Part shown: positions 1-8,301 of the stretch, piece by piece | Layout: each line of letters opens with the position of its first letter | How positions within the stretch are numbered: position 1 is the stretch's first letter | From: a virus | Lineage: Duplodnaviria > Heunggongvirae > Uroviricota > Caudoviricetes | Virus record (IMG/VR): IMGVR_UViG_2609460356_000006 | Length of the DNA stretch: 8,301 nucleotides | Strand: one strand, 5' to 3' | The notes under the pieces: generated by a model | Told to the model about the DNA's origin: nothing | Seen by the model: the letters and a program-made list of their open reading frames with translations, nothing else | Databases searched by the model: none | Program-made: the position numbers and the translations under genes

Positions 1-348
1 AAATCGCGCCAGCGCTGGCTGTTTTACGCGTATGACAGGCTCCGGAAGACGGTTGTTGCGCACGTATTCGGTGAACGCACTATGGCGACGCTGGGGCGTC
101 TTATGAGCCTGCTGTCACCCTTTGACGTGGTGATATGGATGACGGATGGCTGGCCGCTGTATGAATCCCGCCTGAAGGGAAAGCTGCACGTAATCAGCAA
201 GCGATATACGCAGCGAATTGAGCGGCATAACCTGAATCTGAGGCAGCACCTGGCACGGCTGGGACGGAAGTCGCTGTCGTTCTCAAAATCGGTGGAGCTG
301 CATGACAAAGTCATCGGGCATTATCTGAACATAAAACACTATCAATAA
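1..348 (+). CDS. insB: IS1 transposase InsB, C-terminal part (5'-truncated by window edge)
   Basis: Frame 1 is open from nt 1 ([38 protein letters not shown]...HYLNIKHYQ-stop); the 82..348 ORF is the tail of this frame. Recognised as InsB from memory. Confidence 0.9.
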
Positions 349-363
349 GTTGGAGTCATTACC
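1..363 (+). mobile_element. IS1 insertion sequence, right-hand portion only (left part lies outside the window); right terminal inverted repeat ends at 363
   Basis: Sequence 1-363 matches the IS1 3' region from memory, including the characteristic terminus ...CACTATCAATAAGTTGGAGTCATTACC ending at 363; frame 1 encodes the InsB C-terminus. Confidence 0.9.
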
Positions 364-390
364 CACCTTTTAAAAGAAAAACCCTTTAAA

Positions 391-491
391 GGTGAACAGG
401 TGAATACTTGGTGAACACTTCAATAAAAAGTGTTCCCCCCTTAACTATCTGTTAAATAGACGATTTTATCCACGGTGAATAGTGGTGAACA
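391..491. repeat. Iteron cluster, 5 copies of GGTGAAYA (reverse complement TRTTCACC), crr-like cis replication region just 3' of the helicase gene
   Basis: GGTGAACA at 391-398, 410-417, 484-491; GGTGAATA at 399-406, 474-481; plus inverted copy GAACACTT/AAGTGTTC at 413-420/428-435. The octamer equals the P4 alpha-protein type I iteron TGTTCACC as I recall it. Confidence 0.6.
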
Positions 492-500
492 CTTTTCCCA

Positions 501-2270
501 TTACTTTTGATTTTCTCCACTGTTATGAGATGTATCATTCCACATAGGCATCCAGTCTTCTGAGTCGTCGTGAAGCGTGACGTTTGACCTTATGCCATGT
601 TTTGTTTTGCGCTTCTGGTACTCCTTGCCATATTCAGCCATTGCGCCTGGCATATCCGTACCGAACCTCATCAGCGATACCGGCTTGCTCAGACCATTAG
701 CCCGCATATAAGCCAGATAAGCGTGATACAGATAACGGCGCGGGCTGAATGGCACGATCTCGGCATTGCCAATCAGCATTCCATCACAAACCACCGAAGC
801 CATCAGGTAGCCGCAAAAGTCCACCAGTGAATCCCCTTCACGTTTGATGGCCAGCGCTTCTTCTGATTTCTGCTGCTCATGCAAAAGCTGTTTGGCTTCG
901 TCCTGCCTGGAAAAGCGAGTGAGCAGGTGGCGAATGATTACAGCCAGCTCACCTTCAATCTTCTCGGCCAGCATAGGATCGCGTTCGTTTTCCGGTACCA
1001 CTTCGGAGAAGTTGAAAATCACCCGCCGTCTGGAAACCCCCCCGCTTCTGTCGCTGAACGACATGGCATTGTTATTGACGGCAAGCACCACCGCTGGAAT
1101 ACGGGTTGAATATGGCGCTTTGTGTTTAGGGTCAATGGCTACCTTATCCCCGCCAGTGATAGCTTTAATCCCTGCGCCGTCGCCAGCGTACCGGGTCATA
1201 TCCGGCATGATAATCAGCGAATAGCCCACTACCAGCGCCCTTTCCCTTGGGTTCTCCAGCGCCGCCATGCTCGCTGATACGGTGTTGGCCTTGCCCGCCA
1301 GCATCGTGCAGATCTCAGCCATAACACTTTTACCACTTCCGCCCGGCCCCGTTACCTCAAGAAACAGCTGCCAGTCGTACCGGTTCGCCAGCACCATAAA
1401 CAGCGCAGACAGTACGCGGTCTGCTTTTCGGTCATTATCCGCCACTGAGCGGCGGAGCCATTTCCAGAAGTTCGGCGCATGGGTTGCCAGAGTCTCTCCT
1501 TCTGCTGGTTCGCTGAATGGCAATTCGCTCGCAACGATAAGCCAGTCCTTTTTATCATGCGGTCGAAATTGGCCTAACCGGGTATCAAAAACCCCGTTGC
1601 TGAAACCAATAAGATTTCGGGCTGTATTACCCATCACTGGCAGACCCAGCTTCATTGTATCGACAGCGGATTTAATCGCGTTCTGCGAATAGGCGACTTC
1701 GGCATCAATAAAAATTTGCGCCATTTCCCGCTGTAGCTCTTTATCCGAAAGCGGAACCCACACCACGCCGTTGTAATGATGAACCGTGTCAGAATCAGCA
1801 TGGATCGCCAGATTGCCATCGTAATGAGCAAGCAGAACCTCCCCGCGCTGGCTGGCTCCCATCTGGTTAAGCGCTGGCGTAGCACTACCCCTCGTAGTCA
1901 CCATTAGGGGCTCGTCTTCCAAACGCTTCATTAATGGCGTCCAGTCCTCTTTCTCACCTTTTTCGTTGATAAACTCAGCATTGGTAACGCCAGCCTCACA
2001 CAGCTTATTTGCAATCATGCTGATTTGGTTTTGCTCGATAAGTCCGGCCTGACAGACACGAGCAAACCGACGGCCTTTATCAACAATGCGCAGGTGTGGC
2101 AATTCCGCCAGTTGGGTGTGATCCAGAACCACAGGTGGAACATCGTCTCCATGCTCGCCCTTGCCTTTCTGGTAATCCTGAGCGGCTTTCCATGCTCCCG
2201 TTCCAGCAAAGATGATGGCCTCCTCCATTTTGTCGCGCGGGAGGGTTTTCACATTAGGCGCGTTTTTCAT
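501..2270 (-). CDS. P4 alpha-like replication protein: P-loop (SF3-type) helicase of the phage/plasmid primase P4 family, probably with C-terminal iteron-binding domain
   Basis: 589-aa ORF with Walker A GPGGSGKS (aa 308-315) and Walker B-like LIIMPDM; sits at the end of a small-gene operon and directly upstream of the TGTTCACC-type iterons. Confidence 0.85.
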   Translation of the reverse strand: MKNAPNVKTLPRDKMEEAIIFAGTGAWKAAQDYQKGKGEHGDDVPPVVLDHTQLAELPHLRIVDKGRRFARVCQAGLIEQNQISMIANKLCEAGVTNAEFINEKGEKEDWTPLMKRLEDEPLMVTTRGSATPALNQMGASQRGEVLLAHYDGNLAIHADSDTVHHYNGVVWVPLSDKELQREMAQIFIDAEVAYSQNAIKSAVDTMKLGLPVMGNTARNLIGFSNGVFDTRLGQFRPHDKKDWLIVASELPFSEPAEGETLATHAPNFWKWLRRSVADNDRKADRVLSALFMVLANRYDWQLFLEVTGPGGSGKSVMAEICTMLAGKANTVSASMAALENPRERALVVGYSLIIMPDMTRYAGDGAGIKAITGGDKVAIDPKHKAPYSTRIPAVVLAVNNNAMSFSDRSGGVSRRRVIFNFSEVVPENERDPMLAEKIEGELAVIIRHLLTRFSRQDEAKQLLHEQQKSEEALAIKREGDSLVDFCGYLMASVVCDGMLIGNAEIVPFSPRRYLYHAYLAYMRANGLSKPVSLMRFGTDMPGAMAEYGKEYQKRKTKHGIRSNVTLHDDSEDWMPMWNDTSHNSGENQK

Positions 2271-2445
2271 CTTTCAGCCCCCAGCTAACGAAAGTGAACT
2301 CTTTAACGAACCTTTCCAGCGGAAAGATGCACGGAAAATCGTAACCATCACGCACAAACGTTACCCGGTTAAATGCGTTATCTTTCACCGTGACCAGTTC
2401 GCCGCGCTTATCCTTCCAGCTATCGTTGATTTCAGGATTTCGCAC
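2254..2445 (-). CDS. Small conserved phage protein (63 aa), tentatively DUF4222-like
   Basis: ORF overlaps the helicase start by 17 nt and the upstream gene by 14 nt (translational coupling); motif RVTFVRDGYDFPC resembles DUF4222-type proteins as I remember them. Confidence 0.55.
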   Translation of the reverse strand: MRNPEINDSWKDKRGELVTVKDNAFNRVTFVRDGYDFPCIFPLERFVKEFTFVSWGLKDEKRA

Positions 2446-2647
2446 TGTAAGCCTCCCGCGCCTTCACCAGCTCGCCGATAGATTTGTGCAGCAGAGACAT
2501 AATTGCTCCGACACGGCACGCTTCCTCACGGTGTTCTTCACCGTCGGGAATGCTGTCAATCCACATGCTCAGCACAGACATTGCGCACTCACTTTCTGAA
2601 AGGGCATTTTCAGCGTGCATCAGGACTTCAAAAGGAACCTGTCTCAC
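2432..2647 (-). CDS. Hypothetical small protein (71 aa) in the replication operon
   Basis: ORF tightly packed between neighbours with 4-nt ATGA-type overlap upstream; plausible acidic helical protein; no family recognised. Confidence 0.5.
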   Translation of the reverse strand: MRQVPFEVLMHAENALSESECAMSVLSMWIDSIPDGEEHREEACRVGAIMSLLHKSIGELVKAREAYSAKS

Positions 2648-2838
2648 TTTGTCTCTCCCATGTGCAGCTCGGCGATTAATGCCCGGTGAATTTCCTGATT
2701 AAAATCACACGCAATAGAAATCAGATTCAGCAGCGTTTCTGAACATTCAGCAGAGGCTTTTTCCAGGATGGTTTCGTAAAGTGATGAAGCCAGCGCTGAT
2801 TTATATTCGGCCTGCTCCAGACAGATTGGCTCACGCAT
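2644..2838 (-). CDS. Hypothetical small protein (64 aa) in the replication operon
   Basis: ORF overlapping both neighbours by a few nt; no recognisable motif. Confidence 0.5.
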
Positions 2839-3022
2839 AGCGAACCTCCTGAACTGGTAGACGGCCAGCGCATACCATCACGCAGCCAGCCGGTGATTGC
2901 TCACGGGCTTCGCGCTCAGTGTTAGCTGTGATGTGAATGACGTTGCGACCGATGGCGCTCAGTGCAAGAAAACGCCAGATGTAGGACTTCCGCCCTTGCG
3001 GGTGTGTGATATGATCTTTCAT
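2831..3022 (-). CDS. Small Ash/Icd-like protein (63 aa), first gene of the leftward operon (position analogous to P4 kil)
   Basis: Internal ATG at 3022-3020 of the long 2831..3805 ORF, preceded by GAGG 5 nt upstream; product [63 protein letters not shown] resembles the Ash/Icd-like small proteins of P4-like islands (from memory). Confidence 0.6.
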
Positions 3023-3109
3023 AGCTGCCTCGTTACTTTCGCTAACGGTGGTGGTTAGAGGCCCGGTTAGTGTTCCACCACTGCCGGGCTTTGCTTTACT
3101 AAAAGTCAT

Positions 3110-3169
3110 GCAATGTAGTACATTGTCAACTCCACTACAGACTAGACCACAGGAGTTGACAATGTCAAC
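3110..3169. promoter_or_regulatory. Divergent control region with palindromic operator-like sites
   Basis: Perfect palindromes CAATGTAgTACATTG (3110-3124) and GTTGACAaTGTCAAC (3155-3169, centred on the RHH start codon), extra half-site TTGTCAAC (3123-3130); 13-bp inverted repeat CATTGTCAACTCC (3121-3133) / GGAGTTGACAATG (3152-3164). Confidence 0.5.
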
Positions 3170-3335
3170 AAGCGAAAATAAAGAGCGCCATGTTGTGCAG
3201 CTCAGACTCGATAAAGAACTGTCAGAGCGGCTCGCTTTAGCGATGAAAGAAGACGGTGACGATAATAAGTCGGGATGGATAAAACGCCTTTTGCGCCGTG
3301 AACTTGATAAGCGCGGCATCGAGCCAAAAGGCTGA
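3162..3335 (+). CDS. Ribbon-helix-helix-type small DNA-binding protein (57 aa), candidate repressor of the divergent operon
   Basis: ATG at 3162 preceded by AGGAG (3151-3155); N-terminal beta-strand pattern [12 protein letters not shown] followed by two predicted helices. The 3048 start of the ORF track lacks an RBS. Confidence 0.65.
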
Positions 3336-3421
3336 ACAGGGTTACTCCCCGTAATGCTGTGGACTGCCCCTCTTAAAAAGGGTCTGTTTTGCGCAACTAT
3401 TAATGAGTTGTGCAGAGGCTC

Positions 3422-3445
3422 CCCTCTTAAAGAGGGTTGGTTATC
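3422..3445 (+). terminator. Possible weak hairpin terminator
   Basis: CCCTC-TTAAA-GAGGG stem-loop (3422-3436) followed by a T-rich stretch; a similar but weaker copy at 3367-3382. Confidence 0.3.
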
Positions 3446-3654
3446 TTCGCAGCTCTCTACGTTTTTCGTCGGAGCCTCTAAACCACGTTTAACGTTGTTT
3501 TGCCATGAACCCGAATACTGTTCGCCTTTGTCTCGATCTCCGTACGTTAAACGTACGCGGTTAATTTGTGCGTACGGATTTCGTCGGCTCAAGGTTTGAC
3601 CACCAGCGGCAAGCCTGGTAATCTGGCGATGTTTCTGTAAAGCGGTATTGCACT

Positions 3655-3683
3655 GGCGGCCCGGCATGGCCGCCTTTGTTTTG
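3655..3683 (+). terminator. Rho-independent terminator for a plus-strand transcript
   Basis: Stem GGCGGCC (3655-3661) / GGCCGCC (3668-3674), 6-nt loop, followed by TTTGTTTTG (3675-3683). Confidence 0.6.
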
Positions 3684-3687
3684 CCTG

Positions 3688-4380
3688 TCATACAATAGCC
3701 TCCACTTTCAGCCCGCCAGCGGTATACCCCTGAACCCGAACACCATCGACGCGATGACGCTTTTTCGTCAGAAAGCGGATGTGATCTGCGTAGACGTACT
3801 GCCATTTACCATCGAGTGCCACACGTTTAAACCACGGATGAGGCTTAGATATGGTCTGGACAACTGGCGCGGAAGCCTTGCAGGGCGTGGGTTCTGCTGT
3901 GCATACCCCCTTATCGTTACCCGTTACTCTATACAGCCAGTAACTTGCCAGCTTCCCGGTCAATTTACGGGTGCGCACGGGGATATAACCCGCCTCACGC
4001 ATCGCCTTACCAAAAGTGGCATCGTCCGGGTAATACTGGCGGCGTAGTTCCGTAGATACTGAAACGGCAAAGCTGCGTTTAGTCGGGTATTCCTGCCACT
4101 GGCCGACAAATTCAAAAGGAAGACCATTAACCCTTCCTTTGGTCTTGTCCTTGCCGCTTATCCCTACATCATGGTCTGCCTCATGCACGGACACGCCGGA
4201 ACGCAGCCACACCAGCCCGTTACCGTTGTGGCGCAACCCCAGATCGGCAAGCGTAAATTCACCGCGATTAATGGGCGACCAGTCACCGGAAATAACCTGT
4301 TTACGGTTCGCTGAAATATCGTGCTGGCTGGCTACAGGGTGAGCGAATCCCTGCCCGTGGAGGGCATTAATCTTTTTCAT
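3688..4380 (-). CDS. Conserved hypothetical protein (230 aa) downstream of alpA; possibly the inovirus Gp2 / YfjJ-like family (low confidence)
   Basis: Long ORF with SD-like AGGT about 9 nt upstream, 20 nt after the AlpA-like stop (operon). Family guess rests on synteny in P4-like islands only. Confidence 0.75.
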
Positions 4381-4400
4381 CTCAGATTACCTGTGGTTAA

Positions 4401-4685
4401 TTAAGCAGATTTACGGCTGTATGGGTTATTGACGTTCTCTACTGCTGGCGGATTACGAACCCACCAGAGCACATCCGAAAGAAGCCAAGCACAGCTATTG
4501 CGGCCAAAGTGACAGCGCGGAGGGAAGCGCCCCTGCTGCTCCATCTTCCAGCGGCTGGAACGGGAAAGACTGGTGATCTCGCTGCATTCATCTTCACGGA
4601 TTCGGCGATCAAACTTAAAGCCGTACTCTTCTAAAAGGGTGCGGCGCTGTTCAGGATTTGGCGGGGTAAAGGTTATATTTTGCAT
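4401..4685 (-). CDS. alpA: AlpA/Vis-family phage transcriptional regulator (MerR-like HTH), 94 aa with N-terminal extension
   Basis: SLSRSSRW...GRFPPRCHFGRNSCAWLLSDVLWWV aligns by eye with the AlpA HTH and W-x3-EVxxW motifs; GGAGG upstream of the ATG. Confidence 0.8.
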   Translation of the reverse strand: MQNITFTPPNPEQRRTLLEEYGFKFDRRIREDECSEITSLSRSSRWKMEQQGRFPPRCHFGRNSCAWLLSDVLWWVRNPPAVENVNNPYSRKSA

Positions 4686-4737
4686 GCTGCCTCCACTGTT
4701 TCAATGTTATGCGAAGAGATTAGTGGATAAACGACCA

Positions 4738-4807
4738 GAATTTCCATTGATTCTGGAATCCTTTAAAAGAACATGCAATTCCATTGAAAGATAGAAATTC
4801 CATCAAG
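4738..4807. promoter_or_regulatory. Repeated AATT(T)CCATYRA motif upstream of alpA (three direct copies plus palindrome GATTCTGGAATC)
   Basis: TTCCATTGA at 4742-4750 and 4779-4787, TTCCATCAA at 4798-4806; palindrome 4750-4761; inverted copy TTTCAATG at 4698-4705. Confidence 0.35.
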
Positions 4808-4940
4808 ATAACGCTCCCCTGTTTAAAACAGTTTCCACAGTAATTTCAACGGCTGTCTCGAGAGAAAAAATCATGAATTTCAATAACTCGCCGAAGATCA
4901 CCGTTCTTTAACGATTTGATTCACCTTGGATTGTTCATAA

Positions 4941-5000
4941 CAAAGATGAACAATGATGAACGCTGATGAACAGTGATGAATAACCATGAACAAAGATGGA
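4941..5000. repeat. Six tandem 10-bp units nnnGATGAAC (iteron-like, TGTTCATC on the other strand), candidate ori
   Basis: GATGAAC at 4945, 4955, 4965, with GATGAAT at 4975, CATGAAC at 4985, GATGGA at 4995, all in strict 10-bp register; inverted TGTTCAT at 4932-4938. Confidence 0.5.
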
Positions 5001-5040
5001 AAAAGTTAGCAAGTAATGACCTAGTAGGGACCGTGGATGG

Positions 5041-5140
5041 AGCTAGGTATTGTTAGGTGCTGTCGGGTGCCGTTACGTGTCATAACGTGTCATTACGTGT
5101 CGTTGAATGCTGTTGAATGCTGTTGAATGCTGTTGAATGT
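5041..5140. repeat. Phased decamer array continuing the 10-bp register
   Basis: TGTYRGGTGC x2 (5051-5070), CRTWACGTGT x3 (5071-5100), YGTTGAATGY x4 (5101-5140); no unique spacers between units. Confidence 0.6.
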
Positions 5141-5275
5141 AACGGTAATACACATCAAATATAACAATTGAATCTCCTTGGCGATCATAGAATCGCCAAA
5201 AGCTCCAACAAATATAATTAATTAGTATTTTCACATGAAATATAAATAATACCTACTAACACTGCAAAATAATAT

Positions 5276-5926
5276 TCATTCCGTATAATAAATCGAATTT
5301 AATGCCTTTCGAATTTTCTCATATATTGCTGATTTAGATAATCCAGTTTTAGATATACCTTCCTCATCAGCTAATTTATATAGTTCGTTTAAAATAGCCG
5401 AGATGCTTGGTTTTTTAGAGGTGCCAAACGAATGGCCTATCTTATGTGCTATAAGCTTGACCAGCATCCCCATTAATTTATCATTATATTCCTTTTCATC
5501 TTCTTTACGATGCAAGCCGCGTTTGCTGCTTTTCAATGCAATTCCGACCTGTAAAAGCTCATCCCCTCCCATAGCATAAAGATGCTCTTTTCCTTTGTTT
5601 TGATTAGCAATTATAGCCACCGCCGCAAGGCATCTGTCCTTTATGGGTTGTGGTGTAATATCTTCATCAATAAGAGGATATGCCAGAGCAAACATATAGT
5701 CTGCGGGATAGGCTGTTGAGTTTCCACCTCGAAATAATTTAGATGCTGATAACCATCTACTCAGTTGTCGATAGTATATATTGTAAGCTTCAACTTTCGC
5801 TTCAGGGATATCAGCAGTTTTAACTGTCGGATCTACCCCACACATAAGTAGTGCAAGTTGTTTAATATTTAGCTCCGGGGCTTTGGCTTCTCGCTCGAAA
5901 ATACCCAATTTTAGAAAACTAGTCAT
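5276..5926 (-). CDS. AT-rich cargo protein of unknown function (216 aa) with a C-terminal HTH-like segment, start/stop-coupled to int
   Basis: ATG (5926-5924) overlaps the integrase stop as TAATG; sampled 60-nt lines give roughly 27-45% G+C against about 65% in a sampled line of the replication module; C-terminal ISKTGLSKSAIYEKIRKAL resembles an HTH; no family recognised. Confidence 0.75.
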   Translation of the reverse strand: MTSFLKLGIFEREAKAPELNIKQLALLMCGVDPTVKTADIPEAKVEAYNIYYRQLSRWLSASKLFRGGNSTAYPADYMFALAYPLIDEDITPQPIKDRCLAAVAIIANQNKGKEHLYAMGGDELLQVGIALKSSKRGLHRKEDEKEYNDKLMGMLVKLIAHKIGHSFGTSKKPSISAILNELYKLADEEGISKTGLSKSAIYEKIRKALNSIYYTE

Positions 5927-7146
5927 TATTCAGCCTTATTCAACAAAACAATGTTAGTGAATCCACCTGATAAAATATCAAGTCTGTCATACCATTTATT
6001 CAACGCATCCAGTTTCTCAGGCAAGTACAGACTACGGTTATAAATCGCCATGACTCCCGGCATTGAGTGCCCCAGCAACTGTTCGACAACGTGTGGTGCT
6101 ATACCCATATTATTCATATGCGTTGCTAAAGTTCGTCTTAGATCGTGCAGTGTCCATGGTTCAGAATGCCCTAGCTTTTTATAAACGCCGCGGCCCCACT
6201 GACTTACCGCTTCACTGCCTTTAACCGACCCAAGCAAAAGGCCGGATCGTTTCGTTTCATCATGCAGTATTTCAATGAATTTGCGCATGGCATCCGGCAC
6301 AGGTCTTACAATCTTCTCGCCACCCTTGCTGTGCTCTTTGGGAACTGTCCAGACCCAGGCATCCATATCCCATTCACTCCACTCTGATAGCCTGGCCTCC
6401 TGCGTTCGGCACCCAAACACTATTAAGATTGTCAGTAGCCTGGTGTAGTAAGGCATGAAGCAAGTGCCAGAGGAAATGGCAGCCCATAAATCGCCAGCCT
6501 CTTTATCGTTTAATACCCGGTCTTTTTTTGCCTGTTTTTTACCGACATCTGGAATTGTTAAATCTTCAAGCGCGGTACTCACAGCATAGCGACGAACCCG
6601 GCAGAATTTCAGGGCTTGTTTGCACATCTGGAACACATAACCTGCGGCGACTGGAGTTTTCTTTTTCATCCTGTCAAAGCAGTCAAGCCAGTATCGTGTT
6701 TCACAGTCAGCGAGCGCCATTTTCCCTATATAAGGATAAATGTGTTTTCGCAGCTCCGCTTTGTGCCGTTCAACATTCGCGCGGTTCTCTTCTGCATATT
6801 CGCGTATCCAGTATTCTATAGCTTCCTTAACAGTGACCGGTTTAAGGGTTTCCTGAGTAGTCAACGCCAACTGGTGCTTTGGATCTTTACCTGAGGCCAG
6901 CCACTGGCGGCATTTATCACGCGATGAACGGGCTTCTTTGAGGCTCATATCCGGGTATCGTCCCAGAGTCAGACGATGCAGCTTCTGCCCGTCAAGTCGG
7001 TAAGTAAACACCCAGCTAATACCACCAGCTTTAGTTACCTTGGCGCTCAGCCCGGCACCATCAGCATAGAACTCAATCTTACTGGCCGGGATACCATGTA
7101 ATCCCTTTAACTTCCTGTCGCTCAGTTTGTTAAGTTCGCCAGCCAT
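5926..7146 (-). CDS. int: Tyrosine site-specific integrase, P4-like family (406 aa)
   Basis: N-terminal arm-binding-type region (LSDRKLKGL...WVFTYRLDGQKLHRLTLGRYPDMSLKEAR), catalytic motifs HDLRRT, LLGHS and downstream Tyr; N-terminus faces the host junction. Confidence 0.9.
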   Translation of the reverse strand: MAGELNKLSDRKLKGLHGIPASKIEFYADGAGLSAKVTKAGGISWVFTYRLDGQKLHRLTLGRYPDMSLKEARSSRDKCRQWLASGKDPKHQLALTTQETLKPVTVKEAIEYWIREYAEENRANVERHKAELRKHIYPYIGKMALADCETRYWLDCFDRMKKKTPVAAGYVFQMCKQALKFCRVRRYAVSTALEDLTIPDVGKKQAKKDRVLNDKEAGDLWAAISSGTCFMPYYTRLLTILIVFGCRTQEARLSEWSEWDMDAWVWTVPKEHSKGGEKIVRPVPDAMRKFIEILHDETKRSGLLLGSVKGSEAVSQWGRGVYKKLGHSEPWTLHDLRRTLATHMNNMGIAPHVVEQLLGHSMPGVMAIYNRSLYLPEKLDALNKWYDRLDILSGGFTNIVLLNKAE

Positions 7147-7164
7147 AGACCACCCAGCCCAAAG

Positions 7165-7254
7165 TGTTTATACAAATGTTTATACAGAATTGCTTGCATA
7201 ATAGCATAAACAAAGAAAAACACTGGAACAATATACAGGCATGAATTTATACAA
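7165..7254. promoter_or_regulatory. Repeated TTATACA(R) motif in the int upstream/att region, candidate arm-type integrase sites and int promoter region
   Basis: Tandem TGTTTATACA at 7165-7174 and 7177-7186; related ATATACAG at 7231-7238 and TTTATACAA at 7246-7254; AT-rich. Confidence 0.35.
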
Positions 7255-7316
7255 CGCATTGATTATTATATGAATATTAAAATCATCTAAAAGCATGAAA
7301 ACAGCTAATATGACAG

Positions 7317-7331
7317 TACGGCATGAACTAA
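7317..7331 (+). other. fis: Displaced 3' end of host fis (codons Y-G-M-N-stop), marking the island/host junction (att core region)
   Basis: TACGGCATGAACTAA encodes YGMN-stop, matching the Fis C-terminus ...KKYGMN as I recall it; upstream codons are CAG preceded by an in-frame TGA, so similarity to fis breaks here. Confidence 0.45.
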
Positions 7332-7358
7332 TTCAGGTTAGCTAAATGCTTGATTAAA

Positions 7359-7392
7359 AAGGCGCTACTCGGCATGGGGAAGCGCCTTTTTT
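7359..7392 (+). terminator. Rho-independent terminator, probably the native fis terminator
   Basis: Stem AAGGCGCT (7359-7366) / AGCGCCTT (7381-7388), 14-nt loop, then TTTTTT (7387-7392); A-run on the 5' side makes it potentially bidirectional. Confidence 0.65.
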
Positions 7393-7416
7393 ATAGGTGT
7401 CACAAAGGGAGTGACC

Positions 7417-8301
7417 ATGAGAACAGGATGTGAACCGACCCGGTTTGGTAATGAAGCTAAGACCATTATTCACGGTGATGCCCTTGCCGAACTTAAAAAG
7501 CTACCTACTGAAAGCGTCGATCTGATCTTTGCCGACCCACCGTATAACATCGGTAAAAATTTTGATGGTCTGATCGAAGCCTGGAAAGAAGATCTGTTTA
7601 TCGACTGGCTGTTTGAAGTGATTGCAGAGTGCCACCGCGTTCTGAAAAAGCAGGGCAGCATGTACATTATGAACAGTACGGAAAACATGCCCTTTATCGA
7701 TCTCCAGTGCCGCAAGCTTTTTACCATCAAAAGTCGCATCGTCTGGTCATATGACAGTTCTGGAGTACAGGCGAAAAAACACTACGGCTCCATGTACGAA
7801 CCCATCCTGATGATGGTGAAAGACGCAAAGAACTACACATTCAACGGTGATGCTATTCTGGTAGAAGCCAAAACCGGATCGCAGCGCGCGTTGATCGATT
7901 ATCGCAAAAATCCTCCACAGCCATACAATCATCAAAAAGTACCGGGTAACGTCTGGGATTTTCCGCGCGTGCGTTATTTAATGGATGAATATGAGAACCA
8001 CCCGACGCAAAAACCGGAAGCCTTACTGAAACGCATTATTCTCGCCTCTTCCAACCCAGGCGATATCGTTCTCGACCCGTTTGCCGGTAGCTTTACTACC
8101 GGTGCCGTAGCCATCGCCAGCGGACGAAAATTCATTGGTATTGAGATCAACAGCGAGTACATCAAAATGGGGCTTCGACGGCTGGATGTCGCGTCGCATT
8201 ACTCCGCGGAAGAACTGGCGAAAGTGAAAAAAAGAAAGACGGGCAACCGGTCAAAACGATGCCGGGTTAGCGAAGTTGACCCCGATCTCATTGCAAAGTA
8301 A
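7417..8301 (+). CDS. yhdJ: DNA N6-adenine methyltransferase (beta-class, DPPY motif), host gene
   Basis: ATG at 7417 preceded by AAGGGAG (7405-7411); product MRTGCEPTRFGNEAKTIIHGDALAELKK...DLIFADPPYN, 294 aa, recognised from memory as YhdJ. The GTG at 7411 in the ORF track is probably not the start. Confidence 0.85.
   Translation: MRTGCEPTRFGNEAKTIIHGDALAELKKLPTESVDLIFADPPYNIGKNFDGLIEAWKEDLFIDWLFEVIAECHRVLKKQGSMYIMNSTENMPFIDLQCRKLFTIKSRIVWSYDSSGVQAKKHYGSMYEPILMMVKDAKNYTFNGDAILVEAKTGSQRALIDYRKNPPQPYNHQKVPGNVWDFPRVRYLMDEYENHPTQKPEALLKRIILASSNPGDIVLDPFAGSFTTGAVAIASGRKFIGIEINSEYIKMGLRRLDVASHYSAEELAKVKKRKTGNRSKRCRVSEVDPDLIAK

Follow-up and report, generated by a model that had tools for sequence, protein, structure and literature searches.

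Does the 8,301-nt window studied here (the whole stretch of IMG/VR record IMGVR_UViG_2609460356_000006) hold a minimal phage satellite, or one part of a larger island? The island part inside the window, 364-7316, carries an integrase gene, the regulator gene alpA and a replication gene (rep). A sequence-only reading took it for a minimal P4-like element without capsid-hijacking genes, and kept as a fallback a separate lineage of islands that is mobilised by another route. The present analysis indicates, with a probability of about 0.9, that the source genome holds a complete capsid-forming phage-inducible chromosomal island (cf-PICI) of ~16.6 kb at the 3' end of fis, between fis and yhdJ, and, with the same probability, that 364-7316 is the integrase-proximal 7 kb of this cf-PICI, comprising integration, regulation and replication. 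The minimal appearance is a truncation artefact at a contig edge. The island adds one more case to the known cf-PICI family and has a P4-type replicon. The label of a minimal P4-like element thus has to be given up, as a head and packaging module continues past the insertion sequence IS1 in the same assembly, whereas the fallback was essentially right: the capsids of a cf-PICI are its own, and its helper supplies only the tails.

Source and extent of the island

The window is 100% identical to the terminal part of draft contig JNNC01000090.1 (GCA_000700585.1), which was reached via the exact Rep protein and stops within IS1, 2 bp past window position 1. Look-up of the first gene past the insertion point returned a neighbouring contig of the same assembly, JNNC01000089.1 (L019; the other comparison loci are also given as L numbers). 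This contig begins with the other IS1 end and continues with TAAAAGGTG, a second iteron set, cargo genes, the genes from major capsid protein (MCP) through large terminase (TerL), fis, and dusB. Since the source genome is a draft assembly, the island is split into two contigs at IS1, and because JNNC01000089.1 carries the other IS1 end, the same 9 bp and the remaining genes, the island is complete in the source genome.

The IS1 junction has the form of a simple insertion. IS1 produces 9-bp target duplications. Here, window 364-372 reads as TAAAAGGTG on the opposite strand, these 9 bp are present as a single copy in the intact relative L003, and both terminal inverted repeats are found together with the 9-bp repeat (window 341-372 and L019 320-354, compared with L003 11890-11910). 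The IS1 part of the window (1..363) is 99.7% identical to IS1A in L002, and its open reading frame (ORF) 82-348 is the C-terminus of InsB, with PF03400 DDE_Tnp_IS1 called on L007. The span 364-7316 was well placed at its right boundary, where the att core starts one base later (7317), while position 364 is the IS1 junction and not the island end.

Intact relatives show what lies beyond this junction. Only 2 differences in 7,938 bases separate the window from L003 (99.975% identity), and L019 346-10217 is 100% identical to L003 11899-21770; islands of the L003 type are uninterrupted and complete. Megablast against 5,426 complete Escherichia coli genomes finds 364-8301 at ~97% identity in six genomes. 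Leftward of 364, these genomes have more iterons, cargo, and genes for MCP, an HK97-family prohead protease, portal, head-closure protein, head-tail connector, HNH endonuclease, P27-family small terminase (TerS) and TerL, followed by fis. The same gene set is annotated in the intact relatives by RefSeq. Island lengths among relatives are constant at ~16.3-16.6 kb, with an identical gene order in many genomes. From core to core the island measures 16,582 bp in L003, to which the source copy adds 777 bp (IS1 and the duplication), and 364-7316 amounts to only ~42% of the island. The IS1/island junction itself occurs in 0 of the 5,426 complete E. coli genomes (megablast) and has no exact match among one-genome-per-species contigs. 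As a caution for similar cases, an island that looks minimal at an IS-bounded contig or window edge may simply be cut there.

Head and packaging module beyond IS1

The genes beyond IS1 (Table 1) encode packaging proteins that are overall 53-81% identical to their counterparts in the cf-PICI of E. coli O157:H7 strain 86-24, which served as the O157 comparison island. That island matches the prototype EcCIEDL933, which has been studied by experiment, and its MCP carries D257, K290, D295, E319 and R345, the residues reported for EcCIEDL933 (10.1101/2025.02.11.637232). In proteobacterial cf-PICIs, the capsid, protease, portal and connector genes precede hnh-terS-terL (10.1101/2022.09.08.507074), and the order in the present island matches. 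Between fis and yhdJ (L001, L003, and L019 with L007), no tail or holin/lysin family or annotation was detected, with the unnamed cargo ORFs not all checked by structure. Related packaging modules occur in 538 of the 5,426 complete E. coli genomes, in small islands in all rows inspected, which places the cf-PICI family in roughly 10% of complete E. coli genomes.

The region past IS1 had been named beforehand, rightly, as the place to inspect for P4 genes. No sid, delta, psu or P2-type cos lies there, and to that extent the P4-like proposal survived its own check, but the HNH-TerS-TerL genes found in the same region undo the word minimal.

Satellite class and competing explanations

According to the SatelliteFinder definitions, a P4-like satellite has int, alpA, alpha, epsilon, sid, delta, and psu, and the combination of int, alpA, and primase alone fits several satellite families without discriminating between them (PMC10085698). 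This trio cannot separate P4-like satellites, PICIs and cf-PICIs. A cf-PICI is defined by the PICI left module together with capsid, protease, portal, adaptor, connector, HNH, TerS, and TerL, and by the lack of tail and lysis genes (PMC10085698; 10.1101/2022.09.08.507074). Everything in this definition that can be read from sequence was found in the island: the left module with an iteron origin 3' of rep, the capsid and protease genes, portal, closure and connector genes, the hnh-terS-terL order, and no tail or lysis genes. Among the P4-like components, the integrase and the AlpA/Vis-type regulator are present. With P4 proteins as queries against the window, L003 and L001, tblastn gives no match below E = 2 for Sid, Delta, and Psu, for which there are no family matches either, and none below E = 3 for epsilon (Ash). 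The P2/P4 cos 19-mer GGCGAGGCGGGGAAAGCAC, which opens the P4 record NC_001609, is absent from the window at up to 3 mismatches and from L019, L003, and L001 at up to 4 mismatches. The absence of sid, delta and psu homologues and of a P2-type cos had been seen correctly from the beginning.

A minimal or decayed P4-like satellite, with nothing but int, alpA, alpha and ori/crr, that lost or never had sid, delta, psu and cos and is mobilised in some other way, agrees with these absences, with the 51% identity of the C-terminal 449 residues of Rep to P4 alpha, and with the P4 octamer iterons, which occupy a crr-like place 3' of the gene and have a second cluster upstream of alpA as in P4 ori. It is nevertheless highly improbable and is refuted by the complete head and packaging module past IS1 in the same assembly. 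Moreover, 4 of the 7 P4-like core components are missing (sid, delta, psu, and epsilon; PMC10085698), the components that remain are the ones that are not family-specific (PMC10085698), and both Int (50% identity to the O157 cf-PICI Int in a partial comparison vs 23% to P4 Int) and AlpA (47% vs 31% to P4 Vis/ORF88) are nearer to the cf-PICI. The phage-type head and terminase genes (Phage_capsid, Peptidase_S78, Phage_portal, TerL), and one relative deposited as a 'phage', could instead point to an HK97-like prophage remnant, that is, a decaying phage that lost its tail, lysis and lysogeny genes. Such decay is hardly more credible than the P4-like alternative, given the constant length of ~16.3-16.6 kb, the identical order in many genomes, the lack of tail or lysis fragments, and the occurrence of the packaging modules in 538 of 5,426 E. 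coli genomes, as small islands wherever rows were inspected. The int-alpA-Icd-DUF4222-rep module is also of PICI type, and the architecture is that of EcCIEDL933, a satellite shown by experiment to use helper tails (10.1101/2022.09.08.507074). The least probable explanation is a classical PICI that forms no capsids and remodels those of its helper, like EcCICFT073: the PICI left-hand module and the origin 3' of rep would suit it, as would an 11.1-kb classical Klebsiella PICI that shares the fis site and an antisense ribbon-helix-helix (RHH)-like gene, yet the portal and connectors, which are forbidden components of the classical PICI model, are present in the island, and portal, connector, closure and TerL are the components that separate cf-PICIs from PICIs (PMC10085698). 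Gene content thus refutes it.

Some points weigh against the assignment to a complete cf-PICI. The joining of JNNC01000090.1 and JNNC01000089.1 rests on the IS1 ends and the duplication rather than on a spanning read, and a rearrangement between two IS1 copies that keeps both copies of the duplication is formally possible but far-fetched. The body of Rep is not of the EcCIEDL933 type, and the details of replication may differ. The helper, induction, capsid size and cos of the island are all taken by analogy from relatives. In addition, the IS1 copy lies in the replication origin and probably impairs replication, an effect on function that we infer from the position of the insertion and the added length.

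Comparison with known systems

EcCIEDL933 (O-island 51 of E. coli O157:H7) is the prototype cf-PICI. The O157 order is int, alpA, a hypothetical gene, an Icd-like gene, small ORFs, DUF4222, rep, and cargo, followed by MCP, protease, portal, closure, connector, HNH, a small ORF, TerS (P27 family) and TerL, and it is the same in the island; both also lack tail and lysis genes. The two differ in integration (3' end of fis in the island vs the icd/phoQ region in O157), in the body of Rep (P4-alpha-like with TGTTCACC iterons vs DUF927), in cargo (Aga-nuclease-like vs ssb and perC), and in size (16.6 kb vs 15.4 kb). An antisense RHH-like gene and a structured 355-nt spacer separate the alpA unit from the replication operon in the island, whereas the annotated O157 island has neither gap nor antisense gene at that place, and IS1 in the origin is found only in the island copy.

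P4 (NC_001609) shares with the island the alpha-like part of Rep, the TGTTCACC octamer, and the places of the crr-like and ori-like clusters. Both also have an arm-binding tyrosine integrase and an AlpA/Vis homologue. In contrast, sid, delta, psu, epsilon, the P2/P4 cos and the alpha primase domain are found in P4 only, and P4 integrates in a tRNA gene. The island is independent of P2 heads because it encodes its own capsid, portal, and terminase.

The EcCICFT073-type classical PICIs resemble the island in the AlpA-dependent module, in transcription that runs almost wholly in one direction, and in the origin, which follows rep on its 3' side and has an AT-rich region between two iteron sets (PMC6092414). 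Their capsid proteins come from the helper, and they have no portal, connectors, or TerL, all three of which the island has.

A relative deposited under another name is vB_KppS-Ant (LR881103.1, L011; 16,548 bp) from Klebsiella pneumoniae DSM 30104, which belongs to the same island family and has the same packaging genes. It shows 93-96% nucleotide identity to the window over int-alpA and rep, and 97.6% amino acid identity in the primase. Its source was a Klebsiella phage preparation, and its authors took it for a filamentous prophage that had been induced (PMC8006926). By gene content it is a cf-PICI of the same family, and its origin from a phage preparation fits a packaged satellite. It differs from the island in having another RHH-like allele, other cargo after TerL, and no IS1. 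The ends of the record fall in the HNH-terS spacer and hint at the cos without mapping it. The 'tail length tape measure protein' annotated at 2036-4333 in this record occupies the cargo slot that follows TerL, and its name is probably wrong.

Table 1. Features of the window, and of the module beyond IS1 on contig JNNC01000089.1 (L019)
Feature	Position	Strand	Remarks
Right-hand part of IS1 (3' end of insB, terminal inverted repeat ...GTCATTACC)	1..363	+	Not part of the island
9-bp IS1 target-site duplication CACCTTTTA (other strand TAAAAGGTG)	364..372	.	Recurs after the other IS1 end, L019 346-354
Rep-proximal half of origin, six TGTTCACC-type iterons at 391, 399, 410, 431 (+), 474, 484	373..500	-	Directly 3' of rep
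Rep, 589 aa, SF3 helicase/origin-binding protein, mosaic	501..2270	-	Pfam D5_N, DUF5906, Pox_D5; phrog_864
DUF4222 protein, 63 aa	2254..2445	-	PF13973, E 9e-20; 33% identity to O157 homologue
71-aa protein, no assigned function	2432..2647	-	phrog_2196, E 3e-19
64-aa protein, no assigned function	2644..2838	-	phrog_35285, E 8e-40
Icd-like protein, 63 aa, first gene of replication operon	2831..3022	-	NF033153, E 4e-15
57-aa conserved protein, antisense to rest of island	3162..3335	+	PGAP gene WP_162842356.1 in L001
Structured non-coding stretch, 355 nt	3336..3690	+	Ends in GC-rich terminator 3655-3684 of plus-strand transcript
230-aa protein, downstream of alpA	3688..4380	-	CDS annotated in relatives
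AlpA-family regulator, 94 aa	4401..4685	-	PF05930; phrog_2790, E 1.5e-39
Three 10-bp tandem arrays: GATGAACA-like x6, ACGTGTCATA x2.7, GTTGAATGCT x3.8	4939..5139	.	Upstream of alpA, place of P4 ori repeats
216-aa low-GC cargo gene, int-alpA accessory slot	5276..5926	-	phrog_30524 only; GC 33-40%
Tyrosine integrase with arm-binding domain, 406 aa	5926..7146	-	Pfam Arm-DNA-bind_3, Phage_integrase
Candidate integrase arm-type sites, TGTTTATACA twice, 12 bp apart	7165..7186	+	Putative
att core, int-side junction (attR) TACGGCATGAACTAAT	7317..7332	.	Copy of last fis codons and stop
Major capsid protein (Phage_capsid, HK97-type)	L019 1935-3101		65% identity to O157 island
Prohead protease (Peptidase_S78)	L019 3153-3713		63% identity to O157 island
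Portal, head-closure, connector (Phage_portal, Phage_HCP, Phage_connect_1)	L019 3715-5575		81%, 53%, 63% identity to O157 island
HNH, TerS, TerL	L019 5575-8295		62%, 81%, 81% identity to O157 island

Rep and the replication origin

Rep has a mosaic structure. Over residues 134-579 it shares 51% identity with P4 alpha 327-775, which comprises the helicase and the C-terminal origin-binding region, and over residues 1-116 it shares 45% identity with the N-terminal end of the DUF927 Rep encoded by the O157:H7 cf-PICI. The N-terminal primase part of P4 alpha (1-326) has no counterpart in Rep. Because the P4 primase domain is absent, priming is probably carried out by the host primase. Rep is annotated as a 'DNA primase family protein' although a primase domain was not detected. 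The integrase, AlpA (PF05930) and alpha-like helicase named by the sequence-only reading are confirmed by their Pfam domains and by the match to P4 alpha. Its ori-like and crr-like repeats are also present and correspond to the 10-bp arrays and the TGTTCACC cluster, respectively.

The cluster at 391-491 contains the P4 type-1 iteron TGTTCACC in 3 exact and 3 one-mismatch copies, and 3 exact copies were reached in 0 of 200 shuffles. The octamer is identical to the 'ori type 1 repeat' that GenBank annotates in P4 ori and crr. A second set of iterons is found past IS1, and in the intact allele the two sets stand around an AT-rich spacer directly 3' of rep. For all PICI origins, a location 3' of rep and an AT-rich region between two iteron sets have been reported (PMC6092414), and the place of the present origin corresponds both to the P4 crr position and to this PICI-type organisation. 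The 10-bp tandem arrays upstream of alpA likewise have a parallel in P4 ori, where GenBank annotates 10-bp tandem 'type 2' repeats. They are kept in relatives except for copy number (L001 19327-19926; L004 7016-7585). Island lengths of 16,562, 16,572, 16,582, and 16,602 bp vary in 10-bp steps because the array copy number varies among near-identical islands.

As judged by sequence comparison, only the helicase/origin-binding part of Rep and the iterons are P4-like. The PICI Pri-Rep proteins are reported to be only distantly related to alpha (PMC6092414), and the island is thus a closer P4/PICI replicon hybrid than those described in that work. Such a hybrid agrees with the gene flow noted between satellite families (PMC10085698), and a P4-alpha-type helicase/origin module next to a cf-PICI packaging module is an example of module exchange between them.

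IS1 in the origin

The IS1 site is the AT-rich spacer of the origin, between the two iteron sets, which are pushed 768 bp apart, and the genome becomes 777 bp (4.7%) longer. It is because IS1 splits the origin spacer and lengthens the genome that this copy is regarded as probably impaired in replication, and perhaps also affected in packaging. Some residual mobility is plausible by analogy, because deletion of pri-rep in EcCICFT073 lowers transfer ~100-fold without abolishing it (PMC6092414). The natural IS1 in the origin spacer is a ready-made test of the extent to which cf-PICI transfer depends on replication. An independent second IS1 is found at L002 17064-17831 (E. coli TUM9754, and also DETEC-P61), within the 216-aa cargo gene beside int.

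Integration at fis

The att core (Table 1) was obtained by aligning the empty K-12 fis-yhdJ site with both junctions. From 7333 onward, the sequence is the native fis terminator, followed by yhdJ from 7411. A scan of the window for tRNA genes found none, and the element is therefore not a tRNA-site island. Besides the two TGTTTATACA copies next to int, the other arm has a third exact copy (L019 9882) at a distance of ~80 bp from the core, and these repeats are candidate arm sites of the integrase.

Integration keeps the fis reading frame and moves the native terminator to the yhdJ side (7333-7396 vs L003 21420-21520), and the island gives a substitute terminator-like hairpin with a T-run directly after fis. 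The same fis core is used by an 11.1-kb classical-looking PICI of Klebsiella (L021 756-11858, GCA_021918485.1). Its integrase has 406 aa, its Rep is of the DUF927 type, protease and capsid are fused in one gene, and the cargo is Abi_C. PICIs and cf-PICIs thus have the 3' end of fis in common as an integration site.

Proposed life cycle

The cycle outlined here is inferred from EcCIEDL933 and EcCICFT073. Activation of alpA would come from a helper siphovirus with HNH-dependent packaging, AlpA would turn the island on, and Int would excise it at the fis core. Rep would bind the TGTTCACC iterons beside rep and unwind the AT-rich spacer. Subsequently, the capsid, protease and portal of the island would build small heads, into which HNH-TerS-TerL would package the island DNA, and helper tails would join via the closure and connector proteins and complete the particle.

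The plus-strand gene and the structured stretch

All credible genes in 364-7316 are on the minus strand, with the exception of the 57-aa gene, which lies between the alpA unit and the Icd-rep operon. The statement that nothing longer than 57 aa exists on the plus strand is literally wrong, as there are 17 ORFs of 58-141 aa when GTG and TTG starts are counted. Of these, 15 are wholly antisense to minus-strand genes. Of the remaining two, one extends the 57-aa gene from a GTG start (3048-3335), and the other spans 81 aa within the non-coding stretch (3354-3599). In the related RefSeq genome L001, the 57-aa gene is the sole annotated plus-strand gene.

The 57-aa protein has more than 100 homologues of 57-58 aa across Enterobacterales. 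It gives a weak RHH_1 Pfam match (E 0.05), and its AlphaFold2 model (pLDDT 79) has RHH repressors as top Foldseek neighbours, none of them significant (E >= 0.7). This weak evidence suggests that the protein is probably a ribbon-helix-helix DNA-binding regulator. The same gene stands at the same place, also antisense, in the unrelated classical Klebsiella PICI (L021 9001-9177), and vB_KppS-Ant has a different RHH-looking allele there with conserved flanks. A perfect 14-nt inverted repeat (3120-3133 / 3152-3165) covers the Shine-Dalgarno sequence and start codon of the gene with its distal arm. This palindrome, a candidate RHH operator, is not conserved in the Klebsiella PICI with the same gene.

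The 355-nt stretch next to the gene is at least 95% identical even where the RHH-like gene is swapped (vB_KppS-Ant, L011 about 8990-9290), and it folds far better than shuffled sequences (z -5.0 on the plus and -5.6 on the minus strand); the terminator at its end is strong. Rfam at E <= 1 returned three chance-level matches, with no C4/CI-type immunity RNA and no family for this stretch. The STnc40 match was rejected because it is merely the fis terminator.

Descriptions of Gram-negative PICIs and cf-PICIs give them unidirectional transcription and no known master repressor, and a literature search found no paper linking PICI, alpA and ribbon-helix-helix. The 57-aa gene and the structured region, acting as protein, antisense RNA, or both, might form an undescribed repressor or immunity switch that silences the replication/packaging operon and sets helper specificity. 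This is a speculative proposal that is rather unlikely to hold, and the gene could bear on how Gram-negative PICIs stay silent.

Other genes and cargo

The small genes upstream of rep follow the O157 pattern. The O157:H7 cf-PICI also has a DUF4222 gene just upstream of rep, and its Icd-like protein is 54% identical to that of the island. Where several Icd-like small genes had been proposed, one was found (2831-3022). The 324-aa ORF 2831-3805, which extends upstream of the Icd-like start, was considered as a gene and rejected as probably spurious: it has no family match and a low-complexity translation rich in R and S, and PGAP/RefSeq (L001) annotates only its last 63 codons.

The 230-aa protein has no match in Pfam, PHROGs, NCBIfam, or PADLOC, and nothing informative was found for the 216-aa protein in Pfam, NCBIfam, and PADLOC. 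Related islands have DUF6387 or antirepressor genes in place of the 216-aa gene.

A genuinely decayed copy of the island was seen at L018 8258-12395 (ERR4165458). Only 467 aa of its Rep remain, directly next to acrF, so that yhdJ, int, and alpA have been lost, and the capsid-protease-portal region is partly deleted.

The slot between origin and capsid holds an Argonaute-associated-nuclease-like protein in L003 12410-13255 and L019 857-1702 (PADLOC Aga_Nuclease, E 1e-84; Pfam pP_pnuc_1/2), and a PDC-M18A/B pair instead in L001 13006-14563. The cargo of this slot varies among relatives and, by these family matches, looks like a candidate for a role in defence.

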